From Candidatus Scatosoma sp. (lineage in GTDB: Bacteria > Bacillota > Clostridia > Christensenellales > Borkfalkiaceae), in NCBI GenBank assembly GCA_045532525.1, contig JAZSGC010000085.1, positions 1 through 46,694 of the forward strand: a stretch of 46,694 nucleotides of DNA, given 5' to 3'. Of this stretch, positions 3,194 to 30,384 are shown piece by piece; the first letter of the stretch is position 1; the number at the start of each line of letters is the position of its first letter. The notes beneath the pieces were generated by a model. That model had not been told where the DNA came from. It searched no databases and worked only from the letters and a program-made list of their open reading frames with translations. Position numbers and translations under genes: made by a program.

Positions 3194-3205
3194 GCTTTTA
3201 TGCAA

Positions 3206-3240: not shown

Positions 3241-3244
3241 TTCT

Positions 3245-3493: not shown

Positions 3494-3511
3494 ATAACCA
3501 TTCCTTTAATT

Positions 3512-3570: not shown

Positions 3571-3629
3571 TAAGGAAAAGCGTTATTCCGCGCCGGTTAA
3601 GTAGATATTTACAGGTTTGGAGAAATTTT

Positions 3630-3992: not shown

Positions 3993-4004
3993 TGAGGATA
4001 TATT

Positions 4005-4895: not shown

Positions 4896-4926
4896 TAAGG
4901 AAGTTCTAAGGTGTTTGTATTAAATG

Positions 4927-4960
4927 AAAAGGGCGAGAAGACAAATTCTCACCCTTTTTT
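4927..4960. terminator. Bidirectional intrinsic terminator (island genes / rqcH)
   Basis: Stem gggcgagaa (4931-4939) / ttctcaccc (4946-4954) with one mismatch. Flanked by AAAA upstream and TTTTTT downstream. Confidence 0.8.
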
Positions 4961-4971
4961 GTTTTTATCAT

Positions 4972-6687: not shown

Positions 6688-6855
6688 AACCTTACGTCTC
6701 CTTTCCCTAAATTATACCCTAATTTTACGAAATTGTAAATAAAAACGAGCAAAAAACGCTTTATTTTCTTCCTTAAATATGGTAAAATATAAAGCGGTAT
6801 TATCAAAAACCAAGAAAAAATAAAAATTCATATAGATTCAGGAGAATTTCAAACT

Positions 6856-8154
6856 ATGAAGTACACTACCAAAGCGGCAGAAAAAAGCACGGTAAAAATC
6901 ACCTTCAAAATCGACGGTGAAGAATGGAAAGCAGCGGTTCAAAACGCTTACCTTAAAACGAGAGGAAGATTTGCTATCAACGGCTTCCGTAAAGGCAAAG
7001 CTCCCAAATACGTTATCGAAGACGTTTACGGTAAGGGCGTATTTTACGAAGACGCGCTCAATAACCTTTTCAACGAAAATTATGGCAAGGTAATTGATAA
7101 GGAACAAAAGAAATTTACGGTCGTTGGCGATCCCGAAGTTTCCGTAGAGAAATTAGAAGAGGACAACGTTACCATCGTAGCGGTTGTTCCCGTAAAACCC
7201 GAAGTGAAAATTTCTTCCTACACGGGTATGAAAATTAAGCAATTTGCGTATACTGTAAAAGACGAAGAAATCGACGCGGAACTCAACCGCGTGCTCGATA
7301 GAAACGCTCGTAAAGTAGCGGTTACCGACCGCGCTGCACAAGACGGCGACATCGTAAACATCGACTTCGTTGGTACGGTGGACGGCGTGAAGTTCGACGG
7401 CGGTGAAGCGGAAGGCTACGATTTGACACTTGGTAGCGGTCAGTTCATTCCCGGCTTTGAAGAACAGGTCGTTGGTATGAACATCGGCGAAACGAGGGAC
7501 GTGAACGTTACCTTCCCCGAAAACTACCAGGCGGAAGCTTTGAAGGGCAAAGCGGCTGTGTTTGCCGTGAAATTGAACGGCATTCAGGCAAAGGAACTTC
7601 CCGAAGTTACCGACGAATTCATCAAGGAAGCTACGGGCAGCGAAACGCTTGACGCGTACAAGGCAAAAACGAGAGAAAAGCTTGAAAAGCAAGCGGAACG
7701 CCGTGCAAACGACGCAACCGAAAACAGCATTCTCGACGCAATCTCCGCAAACGCAGAAGTTGAAATTCCCCAAGCGATGATTGAAAGAGAAATCGACAAT
7801 CTCGTTAAGAAGTTTGAATATCAGCTTATGTATCAGGGCTTGAAGCTGCAAGACTACCTTGAATTCTTGAAAATCGACGTTTCCGAGTTTAGAAAGAACT
7901 ATGAAGAACAAGCAAAGAAGAACGTTTTGAACCAGCTTGTTATTTCTCAGCTTATTAAGGACGAAAAAATCGAAGCGACGGACGAAGAAGTAGACGCGCA
8001 AATCGCCAAGCAGGCAGCGGAAGTCAACAAGACGACGGAAGAATACAAGAAGAATATGGATCCCCGTCAATTCGACTATATCAGCAGCGATATCGTTATC
8101 ACCAAGCTTTTCGACTTCTTGAAAGCAAACAACGAAATGTACTTGGAAGACTAA
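6856..8154 (+). CDS. tig: Trigger factor
   Basis: 432-aa ORF with the ribosome-binding 'GFRKGKAP' motif, a central FKBP-type PPIase and a C-terminal chaperone domain. SD 'aggag' upstream. Confidence 0.96.
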   Translation: MKYTTKAAEKSTVKITFKIDGEEWKAAVQNAYLKTRGRFAINGFRKGKAPKYVIEDVYGKGVFYEDALNNLFNENYGKVIDKEQKKFTVVGDPEVSVEKLEEDNVTIVAVVPVKPEVKISSYTGMKIKQFAYTVKDEEIDAELNRVLDRNARKVAVTDRAAQDGDIVNIDFVGTVDGVKFDGGEAEGYDLTLGSGQFIPGFEEQVVGMNIGETRDVNVTFPENYQAEALKGKAAVFAVKLNGIQAKELPEVTDEFIKEATGSETLDAYKAKTREKLEKQAERRANDATENSILDAISANAEVEIPQAMIEREIDNLVKKFEYQLMYQGLKLQDYLEFLKIDVSEFRKNYEEQAKKNVLNQLVISQLIKDEKIEATDEEVDAQIAKQAAEVNKTTEEYKKNMDPRQFDYISSDIVITKLFDFLKANNEMYLED

Positions 8155-8207
8155 TCGCCGAAAAGTAAAACTGCTTTTATTGCGAATTTTTGCAAACCTG
8201 TTTATAC

Positions 8208-8234
8208 CGACGCGCCCGATTTTTGGGCGCGTCG
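8208..8234 (+). other. GC-rich stem-loop after tig (weak terminator or processing signal)
   Basis: cgacgcgccc / gggcgcgtcg, a 10-bp perfect stem with loop gattttt. No U-tract follows it. Confidence 0.4.
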
Positions 8235-8270
8235 CAAATTCCTAATCCAACATAAGGACGATTATTAAAA

Positions 8271-8861
8271 ATGGAAAAGAACGTTTTGGTTCCCTACGTT
8301 GTGGAACGCACTTCTTCGGGGGAAAGATCTTATGATTTATATTCCCGTTTGCTGGACGATAGAATTATCTTTTTAAGCGGCGAAATCAACGACGCGTTGG
8401 CAAATACCGTCGTTGCACAGCTCATCTATTTGGAGGGTAAGGATTCCACCAAAGACATCAGCTTGTATATCAACTCTCCCGGCGGCTCGGTTTCCGCTGG
8501 TATGGCGATTTACGACACGATGAACTACATCAAATGCGACGTTTCCACAATTTGTATCGGTTTGGCTGCGTCGATGGGCGCGTTCCTGCTTTCCAGCGGC
8601 GCGCGCGGTAAGCGTTACGCTTTGCCCAACTCCGAAATTATGATTCATCAGCCCCTTGGCGGCGCGCAAGGTCAGGCGAGCGATATCAAAATCCAAGCGG
8701 AGCATATCTTGCGTACCAAAGCAAAACTCAATCGTATTCTTGCTGAAAACACGGGCAAGGACATCTCGATTATCGAACGCGATACCGACCGCGACAATTA
8801 CATGTCTGCGGACGAAGCTCGCAATTACGGTTTGATTGACAGAGTATTCACTAGAAGATAA
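8271..8861 (+). CDS. clpP: ATP-dependent Clp protease proteolytic subunit
   Basis: 196-aa ORF with active-site Ser in '[11 protein letters not shown]' and His in 'MIHQPLGG'. Confidence 0.97.
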
Positions 8862-8880
8862 TCCTTTCGTTTGAGTGTTG

Positions 8881-8919
8881 CGCGCAAATTCCCCTTCGGG
8901 TTTTTGCGCGTTTTCTTCC
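8881..8919 (+). terminator. Intrinsic terminator/attenuator between clpP and clpX
   Basis: cgcgcaaa (8881-8888) / tttgcgcg (8903-8910) with an inner ccc/ggg pairing, followed by ttttcttcc. Confidence 0.7.
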
Positions 8920-8927
8920 AAAACCCC

Positions 8928-8957
8928 AAAACGAGTGGGGCAGGTATGCGATGAACG
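8928..8957 (-). repeat. Dispersed repeat copy a (clpP-clpX spacer, inverted orientation)
   Basis: The plus strand reads aaaacgagtggggcaggtatgcgatgaacg. Confidence 0.8.
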
Positions 8958-9022
8958 AAAGTTTTTCAAGCTTTCACCCTTTATTTTCGACGCGCATATC
9001 TATAAAAATATGGAGTTTAATT

Positions 9023-10267
9023 ATGGCAAATAAAAATCAGCATTGTTCTTTTTGCGGAAAACCCAAAGAAGAAACCCGCCGCTTAATTACTGGCCCTGAC
9101 GGGACTTGTATTTGCGACGAGTGTGTGGATATCTGCAAATCTATGATAGACGAATGGTCGGAAGATAAGGAAAAGAAGAACAGCAAGGTTCCTTTAAAAA
9201 AGCCCGCGGAAATTAAGGCGGAGCTTGATAACTATATCGTCGGTCAGGATAAGGCGAAGCGCGTGCTTTCGGTTGCCGTTTACAACCATTATAAGCGTAT
9301 CAACGCTACCGTCGGCAAAAAGAAAAAGGACGACGACGGCGTGGAAATCGAAAAGAGCAACGTGCTTTTACTTGGGCCTACGGGCAGCGGCAAAACCCTG
9401 CTTGCTCGTACGCTGGCAAAAATTTTAAACGTACCTTTCGCCACTTCGGACGCGACCACGCTCACCGAAGCGGGCTACGTTGGGGAAGACGTTGAAAATA
9501 TTTTGTTGAAGCTTATCCAAAACGCCGATTACGACATCGAACGCGCACAACGCGGTATTATCTATATCGACGAAATCGATAAAATTGCAAGAAAGAGCGA
9601 AAACGTCTCTATCACGCGCGACGTATCGGGCGAAGGCGTACAACAAGCGCTTTTGAAAATTATCGAAAGCACGACGGCAAGCGTACCCCCGCAGGGTGGC
9701 AGAAAGCACCCTAATCAAGAGCTTTTGCGCATTGACACCACGAATATTTTGTTTATTTGCGGCGGTGCGTACGTGGGGCTTGACCGAATCGTTTCTTCGC
9801 GTAAGGACGATACGACGCTCGGCTTCGGCGGCAAGGTTCGCCTTGGCGCAAACGAAGCGGATTACTCCGTCTTAGACGACGTTAAACCGCAGGATTTAAC
9901 GAAATTTGGGCTTATCCCCGAATTTGTCGGTAGACTTCCTATCGTAGTAAATCTTGACCCGCTTGGCGAAGACGCGTTAGTGAAAATTTTAACCGAACCC
10001 AAAAACGCAATTATCAAGCAATATCAAAAGCTTGTCGGCTTCGACGGCGTAAAGCTGACGGTGGAAGACGACGCGGTGCGTGAAATTGCGCAAACAGCAA
10101 TTCGTTTAAAGACGGGCGCGCGCGGACTTCGTACAATTATCGAAAACGTAATGACGGACGTTATGTATAAAATCCCTTCCGAAGAAAACGTAGAAGAAGT
10201 TGTCATCACTAAGGAATGTTTAACGGACGGCGCAACGCCTAAGCTTGTCTATAAGCAATCCGCTTAA
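9023..10267 (+). CDS. clpX: ATP-dependent Clp protease ATP-binding subunit ClpX
   Basis: N-terminal C4 zinc finger 'CSFCGK...CDEC', Walker A 'GPTGSGKT' and 'IYIDEIDK'. I moved the start from the track ORF (8951) to ATG 9023, which has SD 'tggag'. Confidence 0.95.
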
Positions 10268-10286
10268 ACGGCGATTATAAATAGAA

Positions 10287-10313
10287 AACGACCCTTAAAA
10301 AGGGTCGTTTTTA
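10287..10313 (+). terminator. Intrinsic terminator after clpX
   Basis: aacgaccct / agggtcgtt stem with loop taaaa, followed by a T-run. Confidence 0.85.
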
Positions 10314-10315
10314 AT

Positions 10316-10345
10316 TTCATCGCATACCTGGGTGGGGTGTTTTTG
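10316..10345 (+). repeat. Dispersed repeat copy b (after the clpX terminator)
   Basis: ttcatcgcatacctgggtggggtgtttttg. Confidence 0.8.
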
Positions 10346-10349
10346 TTTT

Positions 10350-11009
10350 TTAGCCCATTTTGGGTGATTCGTTTTCCGTTTCCGCCGTATTTTCCGTTAC
10401 TGCCGTCGGCACGTAAATCCACTGTTCAGGACCTGTATCGCGCATTAAAATTTTCTTGTCTTTATACTTAAAAAGCAATAAGCCCGTCATATATAAATCG
10501 CCAACGCAGCCGCCGACGTGCATACCGAATAAAAAGGCAAACAGCACGTAAAGTACGGGATTAAAGAAGTAGAATACTACCGCCAGCGCCGCAAACAGCA
10601 CACCGAACACAGCAAAGGGGGCAATCAACGCAAGGAACGCCGTTTTACGGTAGGTGTATACGTCGGGAACGCCACAAAAGGCACAGCTCCAACTCAGCCC
10701 GAATTTTAACTTTTGCTTGGTCATTGCTTTATATACGACGCCGTGTACCAGCTCGTGTAAAATCATATAAGCAACAATAGAAAGCATCAGCACGACGCAA
10801 AAAAGAGCCACCCACAAAAGCTGCGACGGGCTTGCGTCGCGGAATTCACTCAAATTAATGTCCGCCGTAAAAACCACCAAAATAATTACGCCGATCAAAG
10901 GAATAAAGGAAAGTAAATTCATCACCAAGCCCACCTTTTTCGAGCGCGCGTCAATGTGAAAGGCTTCCTTATAGTTTTGCGGCAACGCCGTTTCGTAATT
11001 CTTTTTCAT
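10350..11009 (-). CDS. DUF3267-like membrane protein (putative zincin, HExxH)
   Basis: 219-aa ORF with about 5 TM helices and a 'HELVHG' motif. Confidence 0.75.
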   Translation of the reverse strand: MKKNYETALPQNYKEAFHIDARSKKVGLVMNLLSFIPLIGVIILVVFTADINLSEFRDASPSQLLWVALFCVVLMLSIVAYMILHELVHGVVYKAMTKQKLKFGLSWSCAFCGVPDVYTYRKTAFLALIAPFAVFGVLFAALAVVFYFFNPVLYVLFAFLFGMHVGGCVGDLYMTGLLLFKYKDKKILMRDTGPEQWIYVPTAVTENTAETENESPKMG

Positions 11010-11071
11010 ACAACCACCTTTATTGCTGTTTTTATATATGTAGTACGTTAAATTTATACCTATTTACAAAA

Positions 11072-11101
11072 TGAAAAAAGCTCCGAGCAAATCGGAGCTT
11101 T
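11072..11101 (-). terminator. Intrinsic terminator of rplU-rpmA
   Basis: agctccga / tcggagct stem with loop gcaaa. The minus strand reads a U-run after the stem. Confidence 0.85.
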
Positions 11102-11105
11102 TCGT

Positions 11106-11381
11106 TTACGCGTTGGGATAAACGCTTGCTTTTTTCTTGTCTTTGCCCATTCTTTCATACCGAACGATACCATCAACAAGCGCGAAGAGCGTATCGTCTT
11201 TACCGATAGCTACGTTCGTGCCGGGATGGATTTTCGTGCCTCTTTGACGAACGAGAATGTTACCAGCGAGAACTGCCTGGCCATCGCTGCGCTTCACGCC
11301 AAGTCTTTTCGCTTCGCTATCTCTACCGTTGTGAGAGGAACCGGTACCTTTTTTATGAGCGAATAAACTGATAAAAATCAT
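11106..11381 (-). CDS. rpmA: 50S ribosomal protein L27 with N-terminal propeptide
   Basis: 91-aa ORF with '[22 protein letters not shown]' and SD 'aaggag'. Seven extra N-terminal residues, 'MIFISLF', precede 'AHKKG'. Confidence 0.96.
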
Positions 11382-11443
11382 TTTTATTTCTCCTTAAAAT
11401 TCAAATTTCTTCCGCTTTCCGTTAGGAAAGACTTGCGTTGCAA

Positions 11444-11749
11444 TTAGAGTTCAATTTTTTCAACTTTAACTGCGGTGAAGGGCTGTCTGTGACCCTGCTT
11501 CTTACGTTCGTTCTTCTTAGCCTTGTACTTGAAGACGATGATTTTCTTCGCCTTGTCCTGCTTAACGACCGTAGCGGTAACCTTTGCGGATTCAACTTCC
11601 GCGCCCGTCTTAATACCGTTTTCGTCGGCAACCATCAGCACTTTGAAAGATACGGTTTCGCCTTCCGCAGCCGCGAGCTTTTCCACTCTAACTACGTCGC
11701 CTTCCGCAACCTTGTACTGCTTGTTCCCATTATCGATGATAGCGTACAT
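11444..11749 (-). CDS. rplU: 50S ribosomal protein L21
   Basis: '[20 protein letters not shown]...'. I trimmed the start to ATG 11749, which is preceded by SD 'ggagg'. Confidence 0.95.
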
Positions 11750-11894
11750 AAAAAGTTTTACCTCCTCTTTCCAGTCTCGAAGAATATCCAAGGCGCAGCA
11801 CATTTTTTACTTTCGGCAAAAAAATTGCTGACTTAAAAAGCCCGTTTCTATCGGCTCGACTATCAATATACCACATTCTTTCTTTATCCGTCAA
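11750..11894 (-). promoter_or_regulatory. rplU promoter plus ~110-nt leader with a terminator-like hairpin (possible L21-leader-type attenuator)
   Basis: On the minus strand: TTGACG (11889-11894), an 18-nt spacer, then TGgTATATT (-10 at 11865-11870). The leader contains gagccgatagaaacgggcttttt (about 11836-11858). I did not check this against a covariance model. Confidence 0.45.
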
Positions 11895-12002
11895 GCATTT
11901 TTGCTTGTTTTTTGATATTTTTTCGATAAAAAACGGATTTTTCACGCGCGCGTATATACAATAGAAAAAAGCCGCATACTGTTAAAAAGGAGACGAGAGA
12001 TT

Positions 12003-12449
12003 ATGGAAAATAGAGATATCAAACAAACGGAAGAAGCGCTTGCGGAAATTTATCGCAACGCACAGCTTGCCCTGCAATCCATTTCCGATATTTTACCCGA
12101 AACGGAAGACGGGGAGCTTCGTGCGGAGCTTACCGCCGAACACGAAGCCTACGAGCATTTCTCCGCAAAGGCACAAATGCTGGCAAAGGATAAGGGTTTG
12201 GAGTTAAAAGAGCCAAACCCGATGAAAAAAGCAATGATGTGGGGGTCTATCAAAATGAGTACGCTTGCCGATAATTCCCGTTCGCACATCGCGGATATGA
12301 TGGTACAAGGCACGGTAATGGGGATCACCGCGCTGCGTACGACGGCAAACGATTTATCCGACCGCGGCGACGAAAGCGTAAAAACTTTGCTTAAAGAAAT
12401 GATTGAAAGGGAAGAAGAATTTGAAAAGAAATGGAAATCCTTTTTATAA
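12003..12449 (+). CDS. Hypothetical helical acidic protein
   Basis: 148-aa ORF with SD 'aaggag'. No TM segment. I recognise no family. Confidence 0.7.
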   Translation: MENRDIKQTEEALAEIYRNAQLALQSISDILPETEDGELRAELTAEHEAYEHFSAKAQMLAKDKGLELKEPNPMKKAMMWGSIKMSTLADNSRSHIADMMVQGTVMGITALRTTANDLSDRGDESVKTLLKEMIEREEEFEKKWKSFL

Positions 12450-12487
12450 AAGTAATTGATTAAAACGGCTCTTATTTTTACCGTTTG

Positions 12488-12520
12488 AAAGCGCGGCTTT
12501 TTCGCCGCGCTTTTCCTTTG
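12488..12520 (+). terminator. Intrinsic terminator
   Basis: aaagcgcggc / gccgcgcttt stem with loop tttttc, followed by a T-rich tail. Confidence 0.85.
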
Positions 12521-12567
12521 CTTTATTCTCGACAATTTTCGCATTATTATCTTATTAAAATATAAAA

Positions 12568-12595
12568 TTCAACGCATACCTGCCCTACGTTTTTA
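12568..12595 (+). repeat. Dispersed repeat copy c1
   Basis: ttcaacgcatacctgccctacgttttta. Confidence 0.85.
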
Positions 12596-12598
12596 ATT

Positions 12599-12627
12599 TT
12601 CAACGCATACCTGCCTGCCACATTTTG
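12599..12627 (+). repeat. Dispersed repeat copy c2 (tandem to c1, 31-nt offset)
   Basis: ttcaacgcatacctgcctgccacattttg. Confidence 0.85.
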
Positions 12628-12666
12628 TTGTTCTATGAAAATGTAGTGAAAAATAGCCTTTCCCCC

Positions 12667-12703
12667 TTTACTTTTTTAAAAATTTATGTTATACTATAAC
12701 ATA
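12667..12703 (+). promoter_or_regulatory. holB promoter with the -10 inside a perfect 19-bp palindrome
   Basis: TTTACT (12667-12672), a 17-nt spacer, then TATACT (12690-12695). The palindrome TATGTTATA-C-TATAACATA spans 12685-12703. Confidence 0.55.
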
Positions 12704-12754
12704 GTTAATTGTTTTTAAGGGAATTTGAAGGTAAAAACGCAAAAAGGGGACGTT

Positions 12755-13723
12755 ATGCAGGCTCTTTTACAAGAAACGCAAGCCTATAAAATCGTGCAAA
12801 ATGAAAAACGGGAAAACCGTCTTTCACACGCCTATTTACTGCTGATGGACGACGGCAAAAATTTGCGTTCCGTGTTAAAAACCTTTGCCAAGCTCCTACT
12901 CGTTGGCGACGCACAGGACGAAGAAGCCCAGCGTATTTCTAAGCTTGTAGAAACGGAAAGCTTTTCCGATTGTCTGTTTTTCCCTACCGACGGTAAAAAA
13001 CTCACCGTTGAAGACGCCAACGCTATTCACGAAGAATGTACGTTAAGCCCTGTGGAGGGAGAGAAAAAGCTGTTCGTTTTAGGCGACTTTGCCGAAGCCA
13101 ACACCCAAACTCAAAACAAGCTGTTAAAGCTGCTGGAAGAACCGCCCAAGCACGTGCTTTTTTTACTGGGCGCAACCTCGGCTTTCCCCGTTTTAACTAC
13201 CGTTCTTTCCCGTACCAAAAAGCTGGAAATCCCCGCCTTTGATATACAAAAGGTAACGGAATGTCTTGCCCGCATTTACGGAAATAAATACGACGAAGAA
13301 ACGCTGCGTTTTTGTGCGGCGGCTTCGGAAGGCAACGTGGGCAACGCCCAAAATCTTTTGGAGGGCGGCCATTACAAAATGCTGACGGACAACGCGTTTT
13401 CGCTGCTGCTTTCCCCCCTTTACAAGCTCCCAACCGCGGTGAAAGCGATAGCCGAAACGAAATACCAAAGGGAACTGCTTTCTACCCTGCGCCTTATTTT
13501 TCGCGACGCGTTGCTTTTAAAATCGCAACCAAACGCCGAAAAATTTCTTTTGCTTCGTTCCGAAAAAGAAAAATTGCAGGAAGTGGCTACCGTGTACGCG
13601 TTGAACGCGCTCTTGTATGCGCAAAACGCGCTTTCGGACGCGGAAAAACAAGTTAAATTCAACGCAGTATTCCCGCAATGCATTGAAATTTGCATTGCAA
13701 AAATTCGTAAAGAAAATAAGTAA
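12755..13723 (+). CDS. holB: DNA polymerase III subunit delta'
   Basis: 'SHAYLL' and 'NKLLKLLEEPP' clamp-loader motifs. I chose the start at ATG 12755 (SD 'aagggga') rather than TTG 12725. Confidence 0.88.
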   Translation: MQALLQETQAYKIVQNEKRENRLSHAYLLLMDDGKNLRSVLKTFAKLLLVGDAQDEEAQRISKLVETESFSDCLFFPTDGKKLTVEDANAIHEECTLSPVEGEKKLFVLGDFAEANTQTQNKLLKLLEEPPKHVLFLLGATSAFPVLTTVLSRTKKLEIPAFDIQKVTECLARIYGNKYDEETLRFCAAASEGNVGNAQNLLEGGHYKMLTDNAFSLLLSPLYKLPTAVKAIAETKYQRELLSTLRLIFRDALLLKSQPNAEKFLLLRSEKEKLQEVATVYALNALLYAQNALSDAEKQVKFNAVFPQCIEICIAKIRKENK

Positions 13724-13763
13724 AACACTCGCGTAAAATCACGCGAAAACGCTAAGGAAGATT

Positions 13764-14630
13764 ATGATTAAAGTTGTAGGAATTAAATTTAAAACAGGCG
13801 GAAAGCTGTACTATTTTTCGCCTAAACAAGGAGATAAATACGAACGGAATATGCCCGTCGTGGTAGAAACTTCTCGCGGACTTGAATTCGCTTGGGTTGC
13901 CTACCCCGAAAAGCTTGTTCCCGACGACGAAGTCGTTCAGCCCTTAAAGCCTATCATTCGTATCGCAACGGAAAAGGACAAAGAATTTTACGAGGCTTGC
14001 GAAGCAAAACGTCCGCAAGCAATGCAGCTTTGCAAGGAAAAAATTGCGGCAAGGGAGTTGGATATGAAGCTGGTGGACTGCGAATACGCTTTCGACGGCA
14101 GCAAAATCGTGTTCTATTTCACTTCGGCAAATCGCGTGGACTTCCGCGAACTGGTCAAGGACCTTGCTTCCGCTTTTCACACCCGTATCGAGCTTCGCCA
14201 GGTCGGCACGCGCGACGAAGCCAAATATCTGGGCGGCATCGCGCCTTGCGGCAGAATTTGTTGCTGCGCAGGGAATATGCCCGAATTTAAAAAGGTTAGC
14301 GTGAAAATGGCAAAAACGCAAGGCTTATCGTTAAATCCCGGAAAAATCAGCGGTCTTTGCGGCAGATTGATGTGCTGTTTAAGCTACGAAAACGATTACT
14401 ATGCCGAAGCGTCGCTGAAAATGCCAAAAATCGGCTCGGAGGTCGGCACCCCCGAAGGTAAAGCCACCGTCGCTTCCGTCAATATGCTGAAAATGCAGGT
14501 CAAAGTAAAAATCGACGATAAAAACGGCGGGCTTATCTTTAAGGATTATCCCGTAGACGAGCTTCGTTTTAAGAGAAAAAATCAACCTGAACCCAAAGAA
14601 GAAAACGACGATGAAGACGAACTCGATTAA
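13764..14630 (+). CDS. ricT: PSP1-domain protein RicT/YaaT
   Basis: 288-aa ORF with a PSP1 C-terminal domain and a Cys cluster 'CGRICCC...CGRLMCC'. holB-yaaT adjacency matches Bacillus. Confidence 0.9.
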   Translation: MIKVVGIKFKTGGKLYYFSPKQGDKYERNMPVVVETSRGLEFAWVAYPEKLVPDDEVVQPLKPIIRIATEKDKEFYEACEAKRPQAMQLCKEKIAARELDMKLVDCEYAFDGSKIVFYFTSANRVDFRELVKDLASAFHTRIELRQVGTRDEAKYLGGIAPCGRICCCAGNMPEFKKVSVKMAKTQGLSLNPGKISGLCGRLMCCLSYENDYYAEASLKMPKIGSEVGTPEGKATVASVNMLKMQVKVKIDDKNGGLIFKDYPVDELRFKRKNQPEPKEENDDEDELD

Positions 14631-14678
14631 CGCCGTTTTTTGAAAAAAATAAGAAAACTTTCAAAGGAGATTTTGTTT

Positions 14679-15782
14679 ATGGAATCTACTACGGAAAATA
14701 CTCCCGTTGCAGCAACGCCTGTAACTCCCGCTCAGCCTGTTCAACCCACAACGCCGGTAGCTCCTGCGCAACCCGCAACGCCGATAGCTTCTGCGCAACC
14801 TGCACAACCCGCAACGCCGATAGCTCCTGCGCAACCTACGCAACCCGCAACGCCGGTAGCTCCTGCTCAGCCTGCGCAACCTGCGCCCGTGGCAGCACAA
14901 GCACCTACGGCTACGCCTGCACCTGTGACGGTAACGGAATCCGCTCCGCAAGAAGAATCCGCGGAAGGGGAAGAGGAAGCGCCCCCGAAAATTATTTTAA
15001 ACACGCAACGAATTTTAGACGACTGGAAAGACGAAAAAGGCAAAGTACTTGTTTTCTTTATGAATCTTATTAATGTCTTTGCTATTTTAGGCTCTATCGG
15101 TTTGTTCTTTACGGGTTTCCTGTTCTTAATCGGTATTTCCACCGCCATCGGATTTTTGGAGAGAATCCGTGCGATCCCGAATATCGAAACAATTTCTATC
15201 GTATTGCTGATTGCGGCTACCTGCGTGGCGATTTGGTGCGATTTCGTACATAAACTCACCCCTTACTTTAAGGCGTTTAGTATTGCAAAATGGTTAAAGG
15301 ACAACAGTATCGACCCCAAAGAAGTAATGAAAATTTACTTACAAACCAAGCGGGAAAACGAGCTGACGAAATATCAGCACGGAAAGGGCGGTATCCGCGT
15401 AGAACAATCGGATTTATCCCAAGCGGCTTTTATCCTTTTAAACGACGAGCATAAATCCATCTACAAAAAAGAGCTTGTATGGACGCTTTTGTTCTGGGTA
15501 TTTCTCTCGGCAATCAAAGTACTTTTCGTGTACTGTTTAAACGAAATCGTCAGCGGTGTTTGCTTACAAATCGCTTCAATGACGAAAGGAAAATTCGATT
15601 TTCTCAGTCTTCTTACCCTTTTGCGCGATCCCTTGTTCCTTGGTTCTATCGGCGGTTGGATTGTACTTGGTATCACGCAAGCCATCGTCCGTGCTTCCAT
15701 TGCGCACGTGAGAAACAAAAATCAGCAAAAGTGGGTAAAAGCGTTTATGAAGGACGATATGCCGTCTAAGGAATATTATTAA
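14679..15782 (+). CDS. Hypothetical membrane protein with an N-terminal Pro/Ala/Gln repeat region
   Basis: Start at ATG 14679 with SD 'aaggag'. About 95 aa of (A/T)TP(V/I)APAQPAQP repeats, then an acidic linker, then at least 5 TM helices. Confidence 0.75.
   Translation: MESTTENTPVAATPVTPAQPVQPTTPVAPAQPATPIASAQPAQPATPIAPAQPTQPATPVAPAQPAQPAPVAAQAPTATPAPVTVTESAPQEESAEGEEEAPPKIILNTQRILDDWKDEKGKVLVFFMNLINVFAILGSIGLFFTGFLFLIGISTAIGFLERIRAIPNIETISIVLLIAATCVAIWCDFVHKLTPYFKAFSIAKWLKDNSIDPKEVMKIYLQTKRENELTKYQHGKGGIRVEQSDLSQAAFILLNDEHKSIYKKELVWTLLFWVFLSAIKVLFVYCLNEIVSGVCLQIASMTKGKFDFLSLLTLLRDPLFLGSIGGWIVLGITQAIVRASIAHVRNKNQQKWVKAFMKDDMPSKEYY
14748..14882 (+). repeat. In-frame tandem repeat (36-nt unit x3 plus a degenerate 27-nt unit)
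   Basis: Units start at 14775, 14811 and 14847 (gcaacgccgRtagctYctgc...). They encode ATP(I/V)A(P/S)AQP(A/T)QP. Confidence 0.85.
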
Positions 15783-15882: not shown

Positions 15883-16578
15883 TTACAGCGGATTTTTTCT
15901 TTCCTTTCCTTGTCCCCTGGGATATTTTGCAGGGGTGTTTTTGTTCTTTTCCACGATAGCGAGTACTCTTTCGCCATATTCTTCGGGCAACGTGTAGGCG
16001 TGGACGCCGACAAGCTTTCCGCCTAAAATTTTATACGCGGTTTGCGCTTCTTCAATTTCCGTTACGTCGCCGCTTTTATAAGCGATAAATTTACCGCCGA
16101 CTTTAACAAACGGCATACAGTATTCGCAAAGGGTATTCATTCTCGCCACGGCGCGCGCCGTCACAAAATCAAACTTTTCGCGAAGCTCCGCATTTTTTGC
16201 GCCGTCTTCCGCGCGGATATTGTGGATACGCACGTTGGATAATCCTAATTTATCCACAACGACTTTTAAAAACTCACACTTTTTCCCCACGCTTTCTAAT
16301 AAATCGAAAGATAAATCGCCGCGCAAAATCTTTAATACGATGGACGGAAACCCTGCCCCCGAACCGATTTCCGCAACCTTGGCGTTTTGCGTAAACAAAT
16401 CCATTCCCGCCGCGCTGTCTAAAAAATGCTTATAATACACGTCCTTTTCTTCCAAAATGGTAGTGAGATTATAACGCTGATTATACTCTAAAAGCAGAGC
16501 GCGAAAGGCGTCGAGCTTCTCTTTCTTCTCGCCTAATATCTCCGTTTGATAAATTTCGTTGATGTTCCGTATCTTCAT
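15883..16578 (-). CDS. rsmG: 16S rRNA (guanine527-N7)-methyltransferase RsmG
   Basis: SAM-binding motif 'GSGAGFPS'. I placed the start at ATG 16578 because a -10 element lies inside the longer track ORF. Confidence 0.9.
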   Translation of the reverse strand: MKIRNINEIYQTEILGEKKEKLDAFRALLLEYNQRYNLTTILEEKDVYYKHFLDSAAGMDLFTQNAKVAEIGSGAGFPSIVLKILRGDLSFDLLESVGKKCEFLKVVVDKLGLSNVRIHNIRAEDGAKNAELREKFDFVTARAVARMNTLCEYCMPFVKVGGKFIAYKSGDVTEIEEAQTAYKILGGKLVGVHAYTLPEEYGERVLAIVEKNKNTPAKYPRGQGKERKNPL

Positions 16579-16587
16579 AGCCTGCTT

Positions 16588-16616
16588 ATTATACCACACG
16601 CAAAAAAAAATAGCAA
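16588..16616 (-). promoter_or_regulatory. rsmG promoter giving a near-leaderless mRNA
   Basis: On the minus strand: TTGCTA (16611-16616), a 17-nt spacer, then TGgTATAAT (-10 at 16588-16593). Only 9 nt separate the -10 from ATG 16578, and there is no SD. Confidence 0.55.
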
Positions 16617-16645
16617 CCTATTTACGATAAAGTTTTCCACTCGAA

Positions 16646-16950
16646 AGTGGATAAGGTTGTCCACAATGTGTAAAACCCTGTTGATAAATGGGTATATAAA
16701 ATATTTTTTCACTTTTTTAGTTTTCCTATTTTCTGTTTTTTAGAAAGCGATAGAAAAATCTCTCAACAAATCCACAAATGCTCCACAAAAATATCCACCT
16801 AAAAAACAGGGGTTGTCCACGGCTTGCACCTTTCCGTTTTTTGCTTATATTTCCATACTTTTCCGTGTGTGAAAGGATGGGGTTGTCCACATTTCCACCC
16901 TGCCTACTACTATTACTTCTATTTTTATTTATTAAAATAAATTCTTCGTA
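16646..16950. promoter_or_regulatory. oriC-like module: DnaA boxes, GC spacer, DnaA-trio-like tract and AT-rich unwinding element
   Basis: Boxes AGTGGATAA 16646-54, TTGTCCACA 16657-65, TTGTCCACG 16813-21 and TTGTCCACA 16883-91, with ATTTCCACC 16891-99 abutting the last one. Next comes CCCTGCC, then CTA CTA CTA TTA CTT CTA (16904-16921), then a 23-nt pure A/T run (16921-16943). Confidence 0.7.
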
Positions 16951-17014
16951 TAAAAGCCAAATCGAATGAAGAAAAAAGTTTGAGGAAATTTGCAAAAAAA
17001 GTGGCAGTGTTGCC

Positions 17015-17042
17015 TTGACAAATTTTCCCTGTATGGTATAAT
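17015..17042 (+). promoter_or_regulatory. Promoter of the DUF1273 gene
   Basis: TTGACA (17015-17020), a 16-nt spacer, then TGgTATAAT (-10 at 17037-17042). Confidence 0.65.
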
Positions 17043-17072
17043 AAATTCGACCGTTTTTTTAAGGGAGCGACG

Positions 17073-17567
17073 ATGGAACAAATAGGGATTTTCACAACTG
17101 AATCCGTACCCCCGAAAAGCTGTGCTTTTACAGGGCATAGAACGCTTTACGAAGGGTTTTCGCCGCGGAAATTAAAGAAAGAAATCAAACGGCTGATTTT
17201 GCAGGGCGTTACTACCTTTTATAACGGTATGGCGATGGGGTTTGATTTGCTCGCCGCGGAAAAGACGTTGGAATTAAAAAAGAGATTTCCGCAAATTAAG
17301 CTGATACTTTGTATCCCCTGCTATCACCAAGAAAAAAACTTTTCCGCTGCGGACAAGCGCCGTTACGTAAAAATCTATCAAAAAGCGGATGAAAAGATAC
17401 TGCTTTCCGAAAGCTATTATCGGGGCTGTATGCAAGCGCGCAATCGGTATATGGCGGACCGCGCGGACGCGCTGATCGCCTACTGTATCAAAGACGAAGG
17501 CGGCGCAGCGTATACGGTGAAGTATTTTCAAAAACACCGCCCAGAAAAAGAAATAATTTTTCTTTAA
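17073..17567 (+). CDS. DUF1273 / YpsA-like SLOG-family protein
   Basis: 164-aa ORF with SD 'aagggag'. Carries 'FTGHR' and 'GMAMGFDLLAAE' motifs typical of the YpsA/DUF1273 family. Confidence 0.8.
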   Translation: MEQIGIFTTESVPPKSCAFTGHRTLYEGFSPRKLKKEIKRLILQGVTTFYNGMAMGFDLLAAEKTLELKKRFPQIKLILCIPCYHQEKNFSAADKRRYVKIYQKADEKILLSESYYRGCMQARNRYMADRADALIAYCIKDEGGAAYTVKYFQKHRPEKEIIFL

Positions 17568-17743: not shown

Positions 17744-18856
17744 ATGAAATTTATTTGCGAAGGAACGGTACTTTCGGACGCGGCGTTTACGGTAAGCAAG
17801 GCTTGCGCGGCAAAGACGACCACCCCTATTTTAGAATGTATCAAATTGAAAGCGGAAAACGACGGCGTTATTTTGACTGCGTACGACGGGGAAATTTCCA
17901 TTGAAAAGAAAATCAAGGCGGACGTTTTGGAAGAAGGCGAGCTTTGCGTAAACGGGAAAACTTTCGCCGATTTTATCGGTAAAATTTCGATGCTGGAGGT
18001 TTCCATTAGCTCGGACGAAAAGGGCGTGGTTATACGTTATGCGGATTGCGAATCGTATATGCAGTCTTTGCCTGCGGACGATTTCCCCCGCTTTATCAAC
18101 CGCTCCACCGACGGGAAAGAGTATTTTGAAGTAAACGAAAATCAGTTAAAAACGTTGATTTCGCAAGTAGTTTTCTGCTGTGCGACGGACGAAAGCCGCC
18201 CCATTTTAAAAGGCGCGCTGTTGGTTGCCAAGGACGGTAAGCTGGAAGCGAGTGCGTTGGACGGGTTCCGTATGGCAAATTCCTATTGCGATATCGTGGG
18301 GACGAGTGCGGATATGAAAATCGTTTGCCCTGCAAGAACGCTTACGGAAATTGCGCGTATGCTGGACGATAAGGAAAACTTAAAGGTATATGCGGACAAA
18401 AATTCCCTTTCCGTTGCCGTGCAGGATACGATAATCACTTCCCGTTTGTACGCTGGGGAATTCGTAAAGAAAGAAAATATTTACCCCGTAGATTTCGTGA
18501 CCAAGGTCCGCGTGAAGAGAACGGAGCTTATCGACAGTATCGAACGTGCGTCCGTGCTTATCCGCGGAGATAAAAACAACTTAATTCAGTTTGATATTAA
18601 GATGAACAAAATCGTTATCAACGCCAACTCCGATTTGGGTAAGGTGGAAGAAACGGTTGCGGCGGATTTGGACGGTAAGGAATTAAAAATTGCAATGAAC
18701 GGCAAATTCTTGTTAGACGCAATCAAGGCTTTAAACGAAGAAATGATCGTATTATCCTTTAACACTTCGGTATCCCCTTTCATTTTGGAAAACGCCGAAG
18801 ACAAGCGTTGCCAGTATTTAATTTTGCCTGTCCGTACGGGAAACCAAGCAAATTAA
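17744..18856 (+). CDS. dnaN: DNA polymerase III beta sliding clamp
   Basis: 370-aa ORF with SD 'aaggag' and a three-domain beta-clamp pattern ('MKFICEG...', '...YLILPVR'). Confidence 0.95.
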   Translation: MKFICEGTVLSDAAFTVSKACAAKTTTPILECIKLKAENDGVILTAYDGEISIEKKIKADVLEEGELCVNGKTFADFIGKISMLEVSISSDEKGVVIRYADCESYMQSLPADDFPRFINRSTDGKEYFEVNENQLKTLISQVVFCCATDESRPILKGALLVAKDGKLEASALDGFRMANSYCDIVGTSADMKIVCPARTLTEIARMLDDKENLKVYADKNSLSVAVQDTIITSRLYAGEFVKKENIYPVDFVTKVRVKRTELIDSIERASVLIRGDKNNLIQFDIKMNKIVINANSDLGKVEETVAADLDGKELKIAMNGKFLLDAIKALNEEMIVLSFNTSVSPFILENAEDKRCQYLILPVRTGNQAN

Positions 18857-19088: not shown

Positions 19089-19223
19089 ATGAAAAGAACC
19101 TATCAACCCAAAAAGAGACAGAGAAGCAAAGTACACGGTTTCCGCAAGAGAATGGCGACGACTGCCGGCAGAAAGGTTTTGAAGAGACGTAGAGCAAAGG
19201 GCAGAAAGAGACTTACCCACTAA
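19089..19223 (+). CDS. rpmH: 50S ribosomal protein L34
   Basis: 44 aa, '[44 protein letters not shown]', with SD 'aggag'. It falls below the ORF-track length cutoff. Confidence 0.97.
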
Positions 19224-19956: not shown

Positions 19957-20037
19957 AAGCGGAGCGTTCCGTTTTTGATAAAAGCAAAGCCGAAAAATGA
20001 TAAAAGCGAAGCAGTTTTCTTCGCAAAAAGGTATATA

Positions 20038-22110
20038 ATGGGACTTTCAAATTTATTAGGTATATCCATCAATATATTTACGCAAACGTATACGGTGGAT
20101 ATCAATTTCATAGGGAAATTCATCGGGTTTTTGGTCGGTTTAGTCGGCGTCGGCTTCGGTGTTATTTTATTCTCGTTGGCGTTAAAGCTTGTTACCTTGC
20201 CTTTCGACGTGATACAAAGAAAGGCGATGCGCAAACAGAATATCCAAATGAAAGAAAATCAAGAGCGTATGGAAAAACTGCAAAAGCAGTACGCCAACGA
20301 TAAGGAGATGTATAACCAAAAGGTTATGGAAATGTACAAAGAGAACGGTATGTCGATGTTCTCTTCGTGCTTGCCTATGATTTTGTCGATGGTTATTTTC
20401 TTTATTGCCATCGGCGCGTTCAACTCCTATTCCGCATACGCAAACGTAGAAAACTATAACGATTTGGTCAGCGCGTACAACAGCGTGCTTTTGGACAAGG
20501 TTGCGGATACCGCGGACGTAGGCTGTGATTTTTCGGTAATCAGCGTAGAAGAAGTCAAAAATAAGAACGGCGAAATTACGGAATACGTATTCACCTATCA
20601 AGTAAAAGACGATACGCTTAGCAATGATAAGGTTTTGTATTATCAAGCAAAATACCACGAAAAAAATTTAGAGCTTGTAGAATTTAAAGCGGAAAACGAC
20701 GGCGTAGCAAGTATTCGTTATAAGAAAGACGGCGAAAACAATATTCCGTTGACAAGCGAAGAAGTAAGGCTGCTTTTAAGAAATAATTTAAAAGCGGAGT
20801 TGGAAGAAGAAGCCAACGCAGACGAAAAAATTACGAAAGCGGAAAGAAAGCAAATCAACGCGGCGTTGAAAGAAGCGGCAAAGTATGAAAAAACCTACTT
20901 CATCAACGACGAAAAAATAACGAGTTCGGTTACGGACGTAGACGTTTACGGTTATACCGTGCAGGTGCAAAAAATCTTCTCGCAGGAAGACGAAACGGAA
21001 GTTGTCGGTTACGAATTCGTTTACAGCGTTGCAAATAATAACACGTTTAACGGAGCTTTGCCTGTTATCAACTACACCGTTAAATATATCGAAAACGACC
21101 TTGAGCTGGTTAGCTACGATGAAACTAACCCTGCAAACAGCGTTCGCTATAAAAAAGACGGCGAAACTAAGGTTCCGTTGACGGAAGCGGACATAAAAGC
21201 GTATTTAAAATCCGATTTAAGTATTAAAGAATACGTGCGCGTAATCAATCCTGTAATCTCAGTATTACCAAAGGAAAACGACGGGTATCTTTTGTACCTG
21301 CAAGCTATCGAAGCGCAAAAGGCGTCTTTATTGAAGAAAAACCCCAACATTACGGCGGAAGCGTTGAGAAAATCCACGTACACGGGCTGTTTTGAAGACA
21401 TTGCGCAAACGGAAGTTGTTGCGGCGTATAAAGGCGGAATGAAATTCGACGGCTCGGGCAAATATACGGGCGTTGTAAATAAAACCAGCTTCCTTTGGAT
21501 TAAAAACGTTTGGGTAACGGACGCAATGTACAAAAATCCCGTTTTGGAATATAGGGATTTTGAAACGGCGATTGCGACCAAAAACGGTTGCTCCTGCTCG
21601 ACGACGAATAAAGCGAAGGATATTCCCGCGTATTCCAAAATCGGGTATAACACGGTAACGGAAAAGCTCGACAAGCAAAAAGACCAGTTTAACGGGTATT
21701 TCGTGCTTATTGCATTGTCAATCGGTACGATTTTATTGCAACAGTTTATTTCGATGCGTTCGCAAAAAGAACAGCAGAAATATTCGTCTGTGGACGGTCA
21801 GGGCGCAGGTCAGCAAAAGATGATGATGGTTATGATGACGGGTATGTTTGCGATTTTCTCGTTTATGTACAGCTCCGCGTTCTCCATCTACCTTATCGTA
21901 AGCAACCTGTTCTCGATGGGTTCTACGGTAATCATCAATAAAATCGTGGATAAATCCGTGGAAAAGAAAGAAGCGAAAGCCGCGGAAGAAAAATTTGAAA
22001 AGCGTTACGGCGGCAGAGTAGCGGCGGCGAAAGAAGCGGGCAAAAAGGCTGCGCAAGCAAGCAAAAATAAAAAATCCGTCGGCAAAAAAGACGAAAAGAA
22101 TAAAAAATGA
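20038..22110 (+). CDS. yidC: YidC/Oxa1-family membrane insertase with a ~370-aa extracytoplasmic insertion
   Basis: The YidC core is present: 'LPFDVIQRKAMRKQ...', a coiled C1 loop, 'NGMSMFSSCLPMILSMVIF', 'SFLWIKNVWVTD' and C-terminal TMs with a Lys-rich tail. ATG 20038 is assumed as the start. Confidence 0.85.
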   Translation: MGLSNLLGISINIFTQTYTVDINFIGKFIGFLVGLVGVGFGVILFSLALKLVTLPFDVIQRKAMRKQNIQMKENQERMEKLQKQYANDKEMYNQKVMEMYKENGMSMFSSCLPMILSMVIFFIAIGAFNSYSAYANVENYNDLVSAYNSVLLDKVADTADVGCDFSVISVEEVKNKNGEITEYVFTYQVKDDTLSNDKVLYYQAKYHEKNLELVEFKAENDGVASIRYKKDGENNIPLTSEEVRLLLRNNLKAELEEEANADEKITKAERKQINAALKEAAKYEKTYFINDEKITSSVTDVDVYGYTVQVQKIFSQEDETEVVGYEFVYSVANNNTFNGALPVINYTVKYIENDLELVSYDETNPANSVRYKKDGETKVPLTEADIKAYLKSDLSIKEYVRVINPVISVLPKENDGYLLYLQAIEAQKASLLKKNPNITAEALRKSTYTGCFEDIAQTEVVAAYKGGMKFDGSGKYTGVVNKTSFLWIKNVWVTDAMYKNPVLEYRDFETAIATKNGCSCSTTNKAKDIPAYSKIGYNTVTEKLDKQKDQFNGYFVLIALSIGTILLQQFISMRSQKEQQKYSSVDGQGAGQQKMMMVMMTGMFAIFSFMYSSAFSIYLIVSNLFSMGSTVIINKIVDKSVEKKEAKAAEEKFEKRYGGRVAAAKEAGKKAAQASKNKKSVGKKDEKNKK

Positions 22111-25606: not shown

Positions 25607-25640
25607 TGCGTTTTTCGGTGTATAATTTGCATAATCAAAA

Positions 25641-26136
25641 TGTGTATAACTGTGGATAATTTTCCGCGAAGTCAAGAAAAGAACGTTTGTTTGTGGATAA
25701 AACGAACATTTTGGCGTTATTTTACGATAAATATTTACATTTTTTCCCATAAATTTTTATTGGAGAAAAAGTTATCCACGAAAAATTGAGATGAAGCGTA
25801 TATCTAACATTTCGGGAAATGCGCAGGTTATCCACAGAAAAATCCCGTGATTTCGCGGTAAAATCGCGCAAAAGCGTTTGTTATTGCAAATGCATTTTAT
25901 CTATTCGGGTGAAGTTATACACAATTTACTGACTGTATGGGTGGACAACCTGTACTTATCCACATTTATACACAAATAAGGGCTTATGGCTGTTTTTTAT
26001 TATGCGGCTTAGGTTATTTTTCGACAGTTTTCAACAAGCGCAGACAAATTGCGACAAGGACAATTTTTCCGCATTGTGGATAAATTTTTAGAGATGGACA
26101 ACCGACCATACCCCTACGCGCATTTATTGTGGATAT
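25641..26136. promoter_or_regulatory. Dense DnaA-box cluster in non-coding DNA between convergent genes
   Basis: Five perfect TTATCCACA/TGTGGATAA boxes at 25651-59, 25692-700, 25828-36, 25956-64 and 26075-83. Five one-mismatch boxes at 25641-49, 25772-80, 25915-23, 25966-74 and 26128-36. Also GGTTGTCCAC-type sites at 25941-50 and 26094-26103, and an AT-rich stretch at 25720-25770. Confidence 0.8.
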
Positions 26137-26160: not shown

Positions 26161-27459
26161 TCAGCGCACGCCTTTAAACTGGACGTCAACTTCTAACACC
26201 GTATTGGAAAGCAGGGTGCTTTCGTAGGCGGAATAGGCGCGGTTGCCCGTTTTGCGAAGTCTATCGCGCAGGCTGAACACGTCGCAATCGAGCGCGCGGG
26301 TCTTTTCAAAAAGGCTGATGATTTCACCCGTCAACTTTTTTTGCGCCGCGGAAAATACGCCCGCGGGCACGTCCCCCGCGTCGGAAAGCTTATCAGCGGG
26401 CAGGGATTTGGAGTAATCCAAAAGCCCCGCAACGACGGTGAGTTGAATTTTTAAATTCGCCATTCCGTTTTTGGCGACGTGCAGCTTGATTTTCGGCGCG
26501 TTTTGCTTAAAGGAAAGGGTGCAGGTGGCGTCTTGTGTAGCAACGGAGTAGGGCGCAAGGCGAAGCTCGTTTAATACTGCATTGCAGGCAAACGTTTCTT
26601 CCGCGGTGAGTGTGCCGACCTTTTTTCCGTGTTTAAAAAGGGCGGTTTCGCCTGCGCTGAATACGGGTTTTTGCGCTTCTCCCCCTTTCTTGCCGCCGTT
26701 CCCCGATTGATTTTGCGAAGACTGCTCGTTGCCCTGCTGTCCCTTTTCTTGCTGACCACCGCTTTTTTCGTTTCCTTGTTTTTCTTCCTTGGGCGGGGAA
26801 GAATTTTCTTGCGGGGTTTGGTTGGGGGTACTTTCTCCGTCGGGTTCTTGTTGGTTTTGTAGCTTGACAATGGGCAAAAGTCCGCAAGCGTTGTCCGCAA
26901 AATATCCCATTGCAAAGGTACGGAGAGTGGACGTATACACCGTGCCGACCTGTTCTGCGTGGTGAGAAAGCACCTTTTGTATTGCGGCGGACGAAGAAGA
27001 ATCGACTAGCGCATCGGCATTAAGCACGTCTTTTGCCGTACCGTCGCAGGCGGCAACAAGGCAGTTATCGCTTAAATATTCGTCCAACAAAAAATAGTCC
27101 AGCGCGTCGAAAACGTTGTTTTTTACCGTTTCTTCGCCCAACAAAATTAAATTGCAAAACACGAGCTTGGGATACCAGCCTGTTTTGGCGTTGATTTCTT
27201 CAAAGGCTTCGGCAACCGTTTTGCCGCGGCTGACGATTTGTACGGCGTTGGCGGCGTTGCCTTGGTCGGACGGCTCGGGAATGGCAACCTGCGAAGTGAC
27301 GATGAAGTCTTCTCCGTCACGATCGATACCCGCCGCGATAATGATGGCGGTTTTTTGAACGTCTATCAGCCCGAAATCGTTAGAAAAAAATAAAAAGGTT
27401 AGAAACACGACGATTAAAAGGAAATATCGGACGGTGTTTCGGTTGTGTGTTCTATACAT
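26161..27459 (-). CDS. Spore germination protein, Ger(x)C family
   Basis: 432-aa ORF with an N-terminal hydrophobic anchor and Ger(x)C N- and C-terminal regions. It is interrupted by a ~60-aa Q/G/N/E/K-rich insert. Third gene of the ger operon. Confidence 0.85.
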   Translation of the reverse strand: MYRTHNRNTVRYFLLIVVFLTFLFFSNDFGLIDVQKTAIIIAAGIDRDGEDFIVTSQVAIPEPSDQGNAANAVQIVSRGKTVAEAFEEINAKTGWYPKLVFCNLILLGEETVKNNVFDALDYFLLDEYLSDNCLVAACDGTAKDVLNADALVDSSSSAAIQKVLSHHAEQVGTVYTSTLRTFAMGYFADNACGLLPIVKLQNQQEPDGESTPNQTPQENSSPPKEEKQGNEKSGGQQEKGQQGNEQSSQNQSGNGGKKGGEAQKPVFSAGETALFKHGKKVGTLTAEETFACNAVLNELRLAPYSVATQDATCTLSFKQNAPKIKLHVAKNGMANLKIQLTVVAGLLDYSKSLPADKLSDAGDVPAGVFSAAQKKLTGEIISLFEKTRALDCDVFSLRDRLRKTGNRAYSAYESTLLSNTVLEVDVQFKGVR

Positions 27460-30309: not shown

Positions 30310-30384
30310 GAAAACAGCGTGTGTGATTGCGGGGAAAAGTATGCGAAAAAACGGATAGCGCGGCGTTTTGCTTGGCGGTTGCTC

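Follow-up and report, generated by a model that had tools for sequence, protein, structure and literature searches.

A continuous 310-bp region between rsmG and the ypsA-dnaN genes is, to judge from its sequence and its conservation, very probably the active chromosomal origin of replication (oriC) of Scatosoma-like Clostridia, built on the Bacillus type and with its initiator gene, dnaA, encoded elsewhere. It was found in a 46,694-nt contig stretch, analysed at its full length and called the window here. A preliminary description of this DNA had left two possibilities: that the origin had become separated from its initiator gene, or that the region is a relic. The first is supported by agreement with the rules for the basal unwinding system (BUS), by conservation, by the local strand skew and by the absence of dnaA across the clade. 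The second is argued against by the conserved trios and A/T composition and by the skew minimum. Because a conserved module, a skew minimum and a clade-wide lack of dnaA occur together, the region is read as an active, dnaA-separated origin and not as a relic.

Architecture of the unwinding module

The elements of the region and of its surroundings are collected in Table 1. A re-reading of the sequence found the box pair, the trios and the A/T run of the preliminary description each in place. A G+C-rich spacer is present as well, but the CCCTGCC proposed for it takes in the last bases of box 2 and the C with which the trios begin, leaving CTGC as the true spacer. The pure A/T run, put at 23 nt, measures 22 or 24 nt. 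The several DnaA-box-like 9-mers noticed earlier amount to nine further boxes with at most 2 mismatches upstream of the terminal pair, between 16633 and 16821.

Table 1. Features of the proposed origin and its surroundings, in window coordinates
Feature	Position	Strand	Description
rsmG (gidB)	15883-16599	-	PF02527; left flank of the origin in all clade loci
Promoter-like site for rsmG	16588-16616	-	10/12 matches; directed leftward, away from the origin
Intergenic region rsmG/ypsA	16600-17072		473 bp
Proposed oriC, whole region	16633-16943		single continuous 310-bp region, Bacillus type
Left DnaA-box group	16633-16687	mixed	5 boxes: TTTTCCACT (+), TTATCCACT (-), TTGTCCACA (+), TTTTACACA (-), TTATCAACA (-)
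Inter-group spacer	16690-16760		A/T-rich, weakly conserved; second least stable 25-mer at 16693
Right DnaA-box array	16768-16821	+	AAATCCACA, TGCTCCACA, ATATCCACC, TTGTCCACG; all in the same orientation, toward the unwinding site
Box 1 of terminal pair	16883-16891	+	TTGTCCACA, 1 mismatch to TTATCCACA
Box 2 of terminal pair	16891-16899	+	ATTTCCACC, 3 mismatches; 1 nt shared with box 1
G+C-rich spacer	16900-16903	+	CTGC, 4 nt
Six DnaA-trios	16904-16921	-	plus strand reads CTA CTA CTA TTA CTT CTA
A/T tract, putative DNA unwinding element	16920-16943		24 nt of pure A/T if the TA of the last trio is included; 22 nt (16922-16943) without it
Predicted sigma-70-type promoter	17015-17042	+	TTGACA-16-TG-TATAAT, 12/12 matches; serves ypsA-dnaN-rpmH-rnpA-yidD-yidC-jag
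ypsA (SLOG family, formerly DUF1273)	17073-17567	+	PF06908
dnaN (beta clamp)	17744-18856	+	right-hand landmark of the origin
rpmH	19089-19223	+	downstream of dnaN; followed by rnpA, yidD, yidC and jag, all +
Cluster 2	25617-26136		520 bp; 16 boxes with at most 2 mismatches, 5 of them perfect TTATCCACA

The upstream boxes form two groups. In an alignment of ten sequences (A1), the TCCAC / GTGGATAA cores of the left group vary little or not at all, and the TCCAC cores of the right array show no variation. The first three boxes of the right array start 11-12 bp apart, and TTGTCCACG lies 22 bp beyond. On the minus strand the trios are NAN repeats of the 5'-TAG-3' type, ten NTN triplets standing in register on the plus strand, and the minus strand is the one that ATP-DnaA would bind as single-stranded DNA. 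The least stable 25-mer of the intergenic region lies inside the A/T tract and ranks in the top 0.013% of the 25-mers of the window.

The BUS of the B. subtilis incC region is reportedly also treated in work by Richardson and colleagues from 2016 and 2019. Pelliciari et al. 2021 (PMC8287927) searched for it by explicit rules: a first box with at most 2 mismatches, an optional tandem box with at most 4 mismatches no more than 3 bp from the first, 0-16 bp (most commonly ~13) between the first box and the trios, and at least three NAN trios. In the window the first box, TTGTCCACA at 16883-16891, has 1 mismatch and the tandem box, ATTTCCACC, has 3 and overlaps it by 1 nt. A stretch of 12 nt (16892-16903), ending in CTGC, separates the first box from six trios, and the 24-nt A/T run lies distal to these. 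The order of box pair, GC cluster, trios and AT-rich DUE that had been likened to the BUS therefore agrees with every published sequence rule. Lederbergia lenta (L023), a member of the Bacillaceae with the canonical jag-rnpA-dnaA-dnaN order, served as a positive control. Its dnaA-dnaN spacer reads TTATCCACA TATTCACAG GCC CTA TTA CTA TTA CTA CTA, followed by an A/T tract. The 12 nt between first box and trios, the box offset of 8, the 4-nt spacer length (GGCC in L. lenta) and the orientation of the trios relative to the boxes are the same in both.

Neither the boxes nor their arrangement is what the composition of this DNA would yield. With at most 1 mismatch, TTATCCACA occurs 32 times in the window against 7.1 expected, a count reached in 0 of 100 shuffles, and these boxes gather in two tight clusters. 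A strict pattern was defined as a box with at most 1 mismatch, a second box with at most 3 mismatches at an offset of 8-12, a spacer of 2-6 nt, and at least six in-register NTN triplets, at least three of them CTA. It has exactly one match in the window and none in 300 Markov shuffles of the window composition or in 300 samples of 47 kb with intergenic composition.

Gene neighbourhood and a satellite array of DnaA boxes

The flanking genes named in the preliminary description, rsmG, a DUF1273/SLOG gene and dnaN, are correctly identified. The promoter of the ypsA-dnaN unit points away from the unwinding element, and A1 shows conservation of its hexamers. A scan with DnaN brought together 22 related loci, all from MAGs and with DnaN 58-89% identical. 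Their genomes bear the names Clostridia bacterium or Candidatus Scatosoma and were recovered from the guts of humans, chickens, ruminants and deer; NCBI places the genus Scatosoma in Clostridia incertae sedis. A protein search of public data returned at least 120 DnaN clusters of at least 72% identity, so the clade is abundant. Every clade locus has the order rsmG (minus strand), intergenic region, (ypsA) dnaN-rpmH-rnpA-yidD-yidC-jag, as does an independent NCBI assembly (L025) whose DnaN is 99% identical. In the most distant subgroup (L014-L017, L021 and L022) ypsA is a minus-strand gene to the left of rsmG, and the module immediately precedes dnaN. Because ypsA is placed there in other clade members, it is not a component of the origin.

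Several other features of the window were recorded. YidC (19975-22110) has 711 aa, the same length as in L025, compared with the 260-300 aa usual in Firmicutes. Two stretches match its 60KD_IMP domain, the best covering residues 60-151 only, and alignments with relatives break into two blocks with a variable middle between them. The stretch 3001-5000 has a GC content of 0.32-0.38 against ~0.46 elsewhere, carries two ORFs of no known function (3630-3992 and 4005-4895), and may be acquired DNA. At 34324-39166 an SPFH/Band-7 gene is followed by three plus-strand ORFs (260, 266 and 599 aa) with no Pfam match, the longest of which weakly matches a CCC-motif membrane protein family.

The statement that dnaA is absent from the whole 46.7 kb is borne out. 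No large ORF of the window matches Pfam Bac_DnaA, and a six-frame tblastn search of the window with the DnaA of L. lenta, a Bacillaceae protein, returned nothing even at E<=10. The same query found no dnaA within 10 kb on either side of dnaN in the 22 clade loci at E<=1e-5, and it recovered its own gene in L. lenta. Because the absence is clade-wide and is seen in independent assemblies, it is a trait of the clade and not an assembly artefact. We infer from the conserved boxes and trios alone that the clade genomes would encode a DnaA. A 432-aa ORF beside the second box cluster (26161-27459, minus strand), considered as a candidate dnaA, proved to be GerAC; it carries a long low-complexity insert rich in Q, G, E, K and S between its N- and C-terminal domains. 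In the rearranged loci L007, L019 and L020 the second cluster has MFS, FtsH/ParB-like and MatE genes as neighbours, and no dnaA.

This second cluster (cluster 2), absent from the preliminary description, is denser than the origin and has five perfect boxes where the origin of the window has none. It fills a non-coding gap of 660 bp where a cvpA-like gene and gerAC converge with their 3' ends; given that setting, it is not a promoter region. Relatives have its boxes at orthologous positions, with many indels in the spacers between them. In 11 loci its distance from the origin is 4-10 kb, to the left or to the right, and it never adjoins dnaA. In L007 and L009, whose gerA operon has been relocated to the left of the origin, the cluster still follows the 3' end of gerAC. 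In the most distant subgroup no second cluster was found within 10 kb on either side of dnaN, and the origin itself has more perfect boxes. Loose and strict scans of cluster 2 found no second unwinding module and no trio tract, and no Rfam family matches it. A hidden gene was rejected, as the only ORFs are short and not conserved and the alignment is full of indels. Cluster 2 is probably an origin-proximal DnaA-binding sink, titrating DnaA, or an auxiliary site.

In a conserved 24-nt element within it, AAAAGAACGTTTGTTTGTGGATAAAA (25671-25700 in the window), a GAAC-N4-GTTT motif is joined to a perfect DnaA box. The element recurs in L002 (17591-17611) and L004 (17992-18012), and L007, L009 and L012 carry a similar one at the cluster's other end and on the other strand. 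The motif is LexA/Cheo-box-like. A LexA box was rejected, GAAC-N4-GTTY not being enriched in the window (7 found, 4.9 expected).

The wider gene order allows a bolder account. Between holB-yaaT (PSP1) at 12725-14630 and a yabB-like methyltransferase gene with rsmI (yabC) at 30319-32003 lies a block of 14.5 kb that holds rsmG, the origin, dnaN, jag, cluster 2 and gerA. In B. subtilis the two gene sets adjoin, in the order holB-yaaT-yabA-yabB-yazA-yabC. The difference suggests insertion or inversion of the origin block into the holB...yabC cluster. It is a possible but rather unlikely extension that the origin, dnaN and rpmH-jag were relocated as one block into the holB-yaaT / yabB-rsmI cluster without dnaA, with cluster 2, a dedicated box array that has no promoter, compensating for the lost linkage from a distance. 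Cluster 2 would then be the second half of a gene-spanning bipartite origin or an obligatory DnaA reservoir, and the clade would be a natural experiment parting a Firmicute origin from its initiator gene. Downstream of yaaT, a 380-aa ORF (14640-15782) takes the place of yabA in Bacillus. Its identity to close relatives is 54-57%, against 93-97% for PSP1, and it is therefore evolving fast; with no Pfam or NCBIfam match, it was rejected as a YabA-like regulator.

A sub-variant of the preferred reading would make the module at 16.9 kb and the array at 25.6-26.1 kb the two halves of one split origin, which DnaA would join over 4-10 kb of ordinary genes and not over dnaA. Its models are incC with incA/B in Bacillus and oriC2 with oriC1 in H. 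pylori and C. difficile, and bipartite origins that loop out the intervening DNA are established (PMC7561715). The surplus of perfect boxes in cluster 2, its non-coding position between convergent 3' ends, where no promoter is expected, its box-by-box conservation and its retention at 4-10 kb from the origin even where it switches sides (L007 and L009) all accord with such a bridge. Cluster 1, however, seems self-sufficient, with about ten boxes and an unwinding module. The most distant subgroup does without a nearby second cluster and has more perfect boxes at the origin, and origin-proximal clusters outside the origin of B. subtilis are negative regulators (PMC3245932). A split origin is accordingly unlikely, and for cluster 2 the role of a distant second half is less likely than one resembling that of the B. 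subtilis clusters.

Conservation, strand asymmetry and the proposed mechanism

The preliminary description had called for a comparison with related genomes, and the arrangement of boxes and trios is kept wherever a clade locus includes the whole intergenic region. Each such locus has one copy by a loose scan, or by eye in the alignment for L005, and the scan gave a single off-target match in ~450 kb searched on both strands. Mean identity per column in A1 is only 40%. Invariant columns number 59 among the 116 that fall in boxes and trios and 15 among the remaining 345 (odds ratio 22.8, p = 5e-28), and the 18 trio columns include 13 of the invariant ones. The A/T tract behaves differently: its A+T content stays at 83-100% in the relatives while the sequence itself drifts. 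This signature points to selection on DnaA-binding motifs together with an unwinding element constrained in composition, and it argues against a decaying relic. The alignment indicates that the module is under purifying selection across a clade in which DnaN has diverged to 58% identity.

The strand asymmetry of the DNA changes at the same place. The cumulative GC skew, proposed earlier as a check and here computed locally, reaches its lowest point at 16963, ~20 bp beyond the A/T tract, with 16.9 kb to the left and 29.7 kb to the right in the window. Of the 15 clade loci of at least 15 kb, fragmented MAGs covered over 10 kb on either side, 12 reach their local minimum at a distance of 32-601 bp, most often 50-70 bp, on the right of the module. 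The 12 include L007 and L009, in which cluster 2 and the flanking genes are differently arranged; in the other three (L015, L016 and L020) the local minimum lies away from the module. The location of a BUS at the skew minimum is thus found locally, in the window as in most relatives. GC3 skew, expressed on the plus strand, is -0.154 for plus-strand and -0.099 for minus-strand genes left of the origin, and +0.024 and +0.229, respectively, to the right. Since GC3 shifts on genes of both strands, the change in skew is not an artefact of gene orientation.

Gene orientation on the left flank is a separate matter. Ten of the 13 genes to the left (26-15782) lie on the plus strand, head-on to replication from 16.9 kb, and they include lon, engB, tig, clpP, clpX, holB and yaaT/PSP1. 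A mostly head-on left flank is atypical for Firmicutes. Because the left plus-strand genes still have negative GC3 skew, the arrangement is old. The holB-PSP1 pair is head-on in every clade locus that carries it, on either side of the origin (L017 and L021).

These data bear directly on the second alternative of the preliminary description. As a relic, the module would be a former incC kept for DnaA-responsive control of the ypsA-dnaN operon, with initiation at a dnaA-linked origin elsewhere. DnaA is a known transcription factor (PMC4447404, PMC13438810), a strong predicted promoter lies ~70 bp downstream of the module, no dnaA is nearby and most left-flank genes run head-on. An operator, however, needs neither phased trios nor an A/T tract conserved in composition, yet both are conserved. 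In the window, and in most relatives despite their differing flanks, no more than ~60 bp separate the skew minimum from the A/T tract, and the negative GC3 skew of the left plus-strand genes requires long-term replication from the module. A relic is thus very unlikely. Chance resemblance in A/T-rich intergenic DNA, or a chimeric MAG contig that lost dnaA, is next to negligible even though the window comes from an uncultured organism and every clade comparator is a MAG, given a strict pattern absent from all 300 trials under each of two nulls, the recurrence of this gene order and module in 22 MAG loci that were assembled independently and stem from different hosts and studies, and the agreement of the contig with 99% identical DnaN.

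For the active, dnaA-separated origin a mechanism can be proposed, in which we infer DnaA binding, unwinding, the effect of the promoters and the role of cluster 2. DnaA, encoded elsewhere in the genome, would fill about ten DnaA boxes, including the phased four-box array of uniform orientation and the terminal overlapping pair. From this pair an oligomer of ATP-DnaA would grow onto the six minus-strand trios and stretch the DNA, so that the adjacent 24-nt A/T tract melts and the helicase could be loaded there. Replication would leave the origin in both directions. The divergent promoters, of rsmG to the left and of ypsA-dnaN to the right, may aid opening through negative supercoiling, and cluster 2, 9 kb away, would most likely act as an origin-proximal DnaA-binding sink or auxiliary site.

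No new mechanism is involved here. Origins unlinked from dnaA are well known, and a dnaN-side origin without dnaA is unusual for Firmicutes, not unprecedented; a literature search found nothing on origins of Christensenellales or Scatosoma. The clade would give origin-prediction tools a documented Firmicute exception, and its layout places all accessory boxes on one side and adds a separate satellite array. It suggests that a Bacillus-type module works, or at least is maintained by selection, without an adjacent dnaA. This supports the view that the module of box pair, trios and A/T tract is the portable core of the origin, and offers a natural test of whether the linkage of dnaA to oriC and looping across dnaA matter.

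Comparison with known origins

The conserved Firmicute order is rnpA-rpmH-dnaA-dnaN, with a bipartite origin around dnaA (PMC7561715). The clade departs from this norm in having no dnaA at the locus and in carrying rpmH-jag downstream of dnaN on the same strand. In place of a dnaA immediately upstream with flanking box clusters there is rsmG, and in place of a divergent rpmH-rnpA on the side opposite dnaN, all genes after dnaN are on the plus strand.

The closest likeness is to the incC/BUS of B. subtilis. Both have an overlapping box pair, a 4-nt G+C spacer, at least six trios of the 3'-GAT-5' type and an A/T tract, and both stand immediately upstream of the dnaN transcription unit. The Bacillus module, however, has dnaA on one side and dnaN on the other, and forms a bipartite origin with the incA/B clusters upstream of dnaA. 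The module of the window has no dnaA, has rsmG as its left neighbour and has its accessory boxes directly beside it.

In E. coli, oriC lies between gidA (mnmG) / gidB (rsmG) and mioC, ~42 kb from dnaA. The window resembles it, and the gid-linked origins of endosymbionts, in an unlinked dnaA and a gid-family neighbour (rsmG being gidB), and it shares with E. coli oriC transcription units that diverge from the unwinding region. It differs from the 13-mer DUE, the R, I and tau sites and the IHF and Fis sites of E. coli oriC, and in E. coli dnaN adjoins dnaA. Origins adjacent to gidA have been described (PMC4009838).

Most cyanobacteria have oriC next to dnaN with dnaA elsewhere, for which a translocation of dnaA has been proposed (PMC4009838). 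The origins of Synechococcus elongatus PCC 7942 and Anabaena PCC 7120 (PMC4009838) are, like that of the window, linked to dnaN and distant from the initiator gene. The history proposed for both is likewise one in which dnaA moved out of an ancestral dnaA-oriC-dnaN arrangement (PMC4009838). The cyanobacteria belong to another phylum, however, and prefer another box, TTTTCCACA.

Finally, cluster 2, an array packed with high-affinity DnaA boxes, has its own counterparts in the DnaA-box clusters (DBCs) of B. subtilis and in datA of E. coli. The oriC-proximal DBCs restrain initiation by binding DnaA (Okumura et al. 2012, PMC3245932). Cluster 2 shares with these systems that it is dense, lies outside but near the origin and is conserved. 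It differs in its setting, since the B. subtilis DBCs are mostly in promoter regions, whereas cluster 2 sits between two convergent 3' ends.
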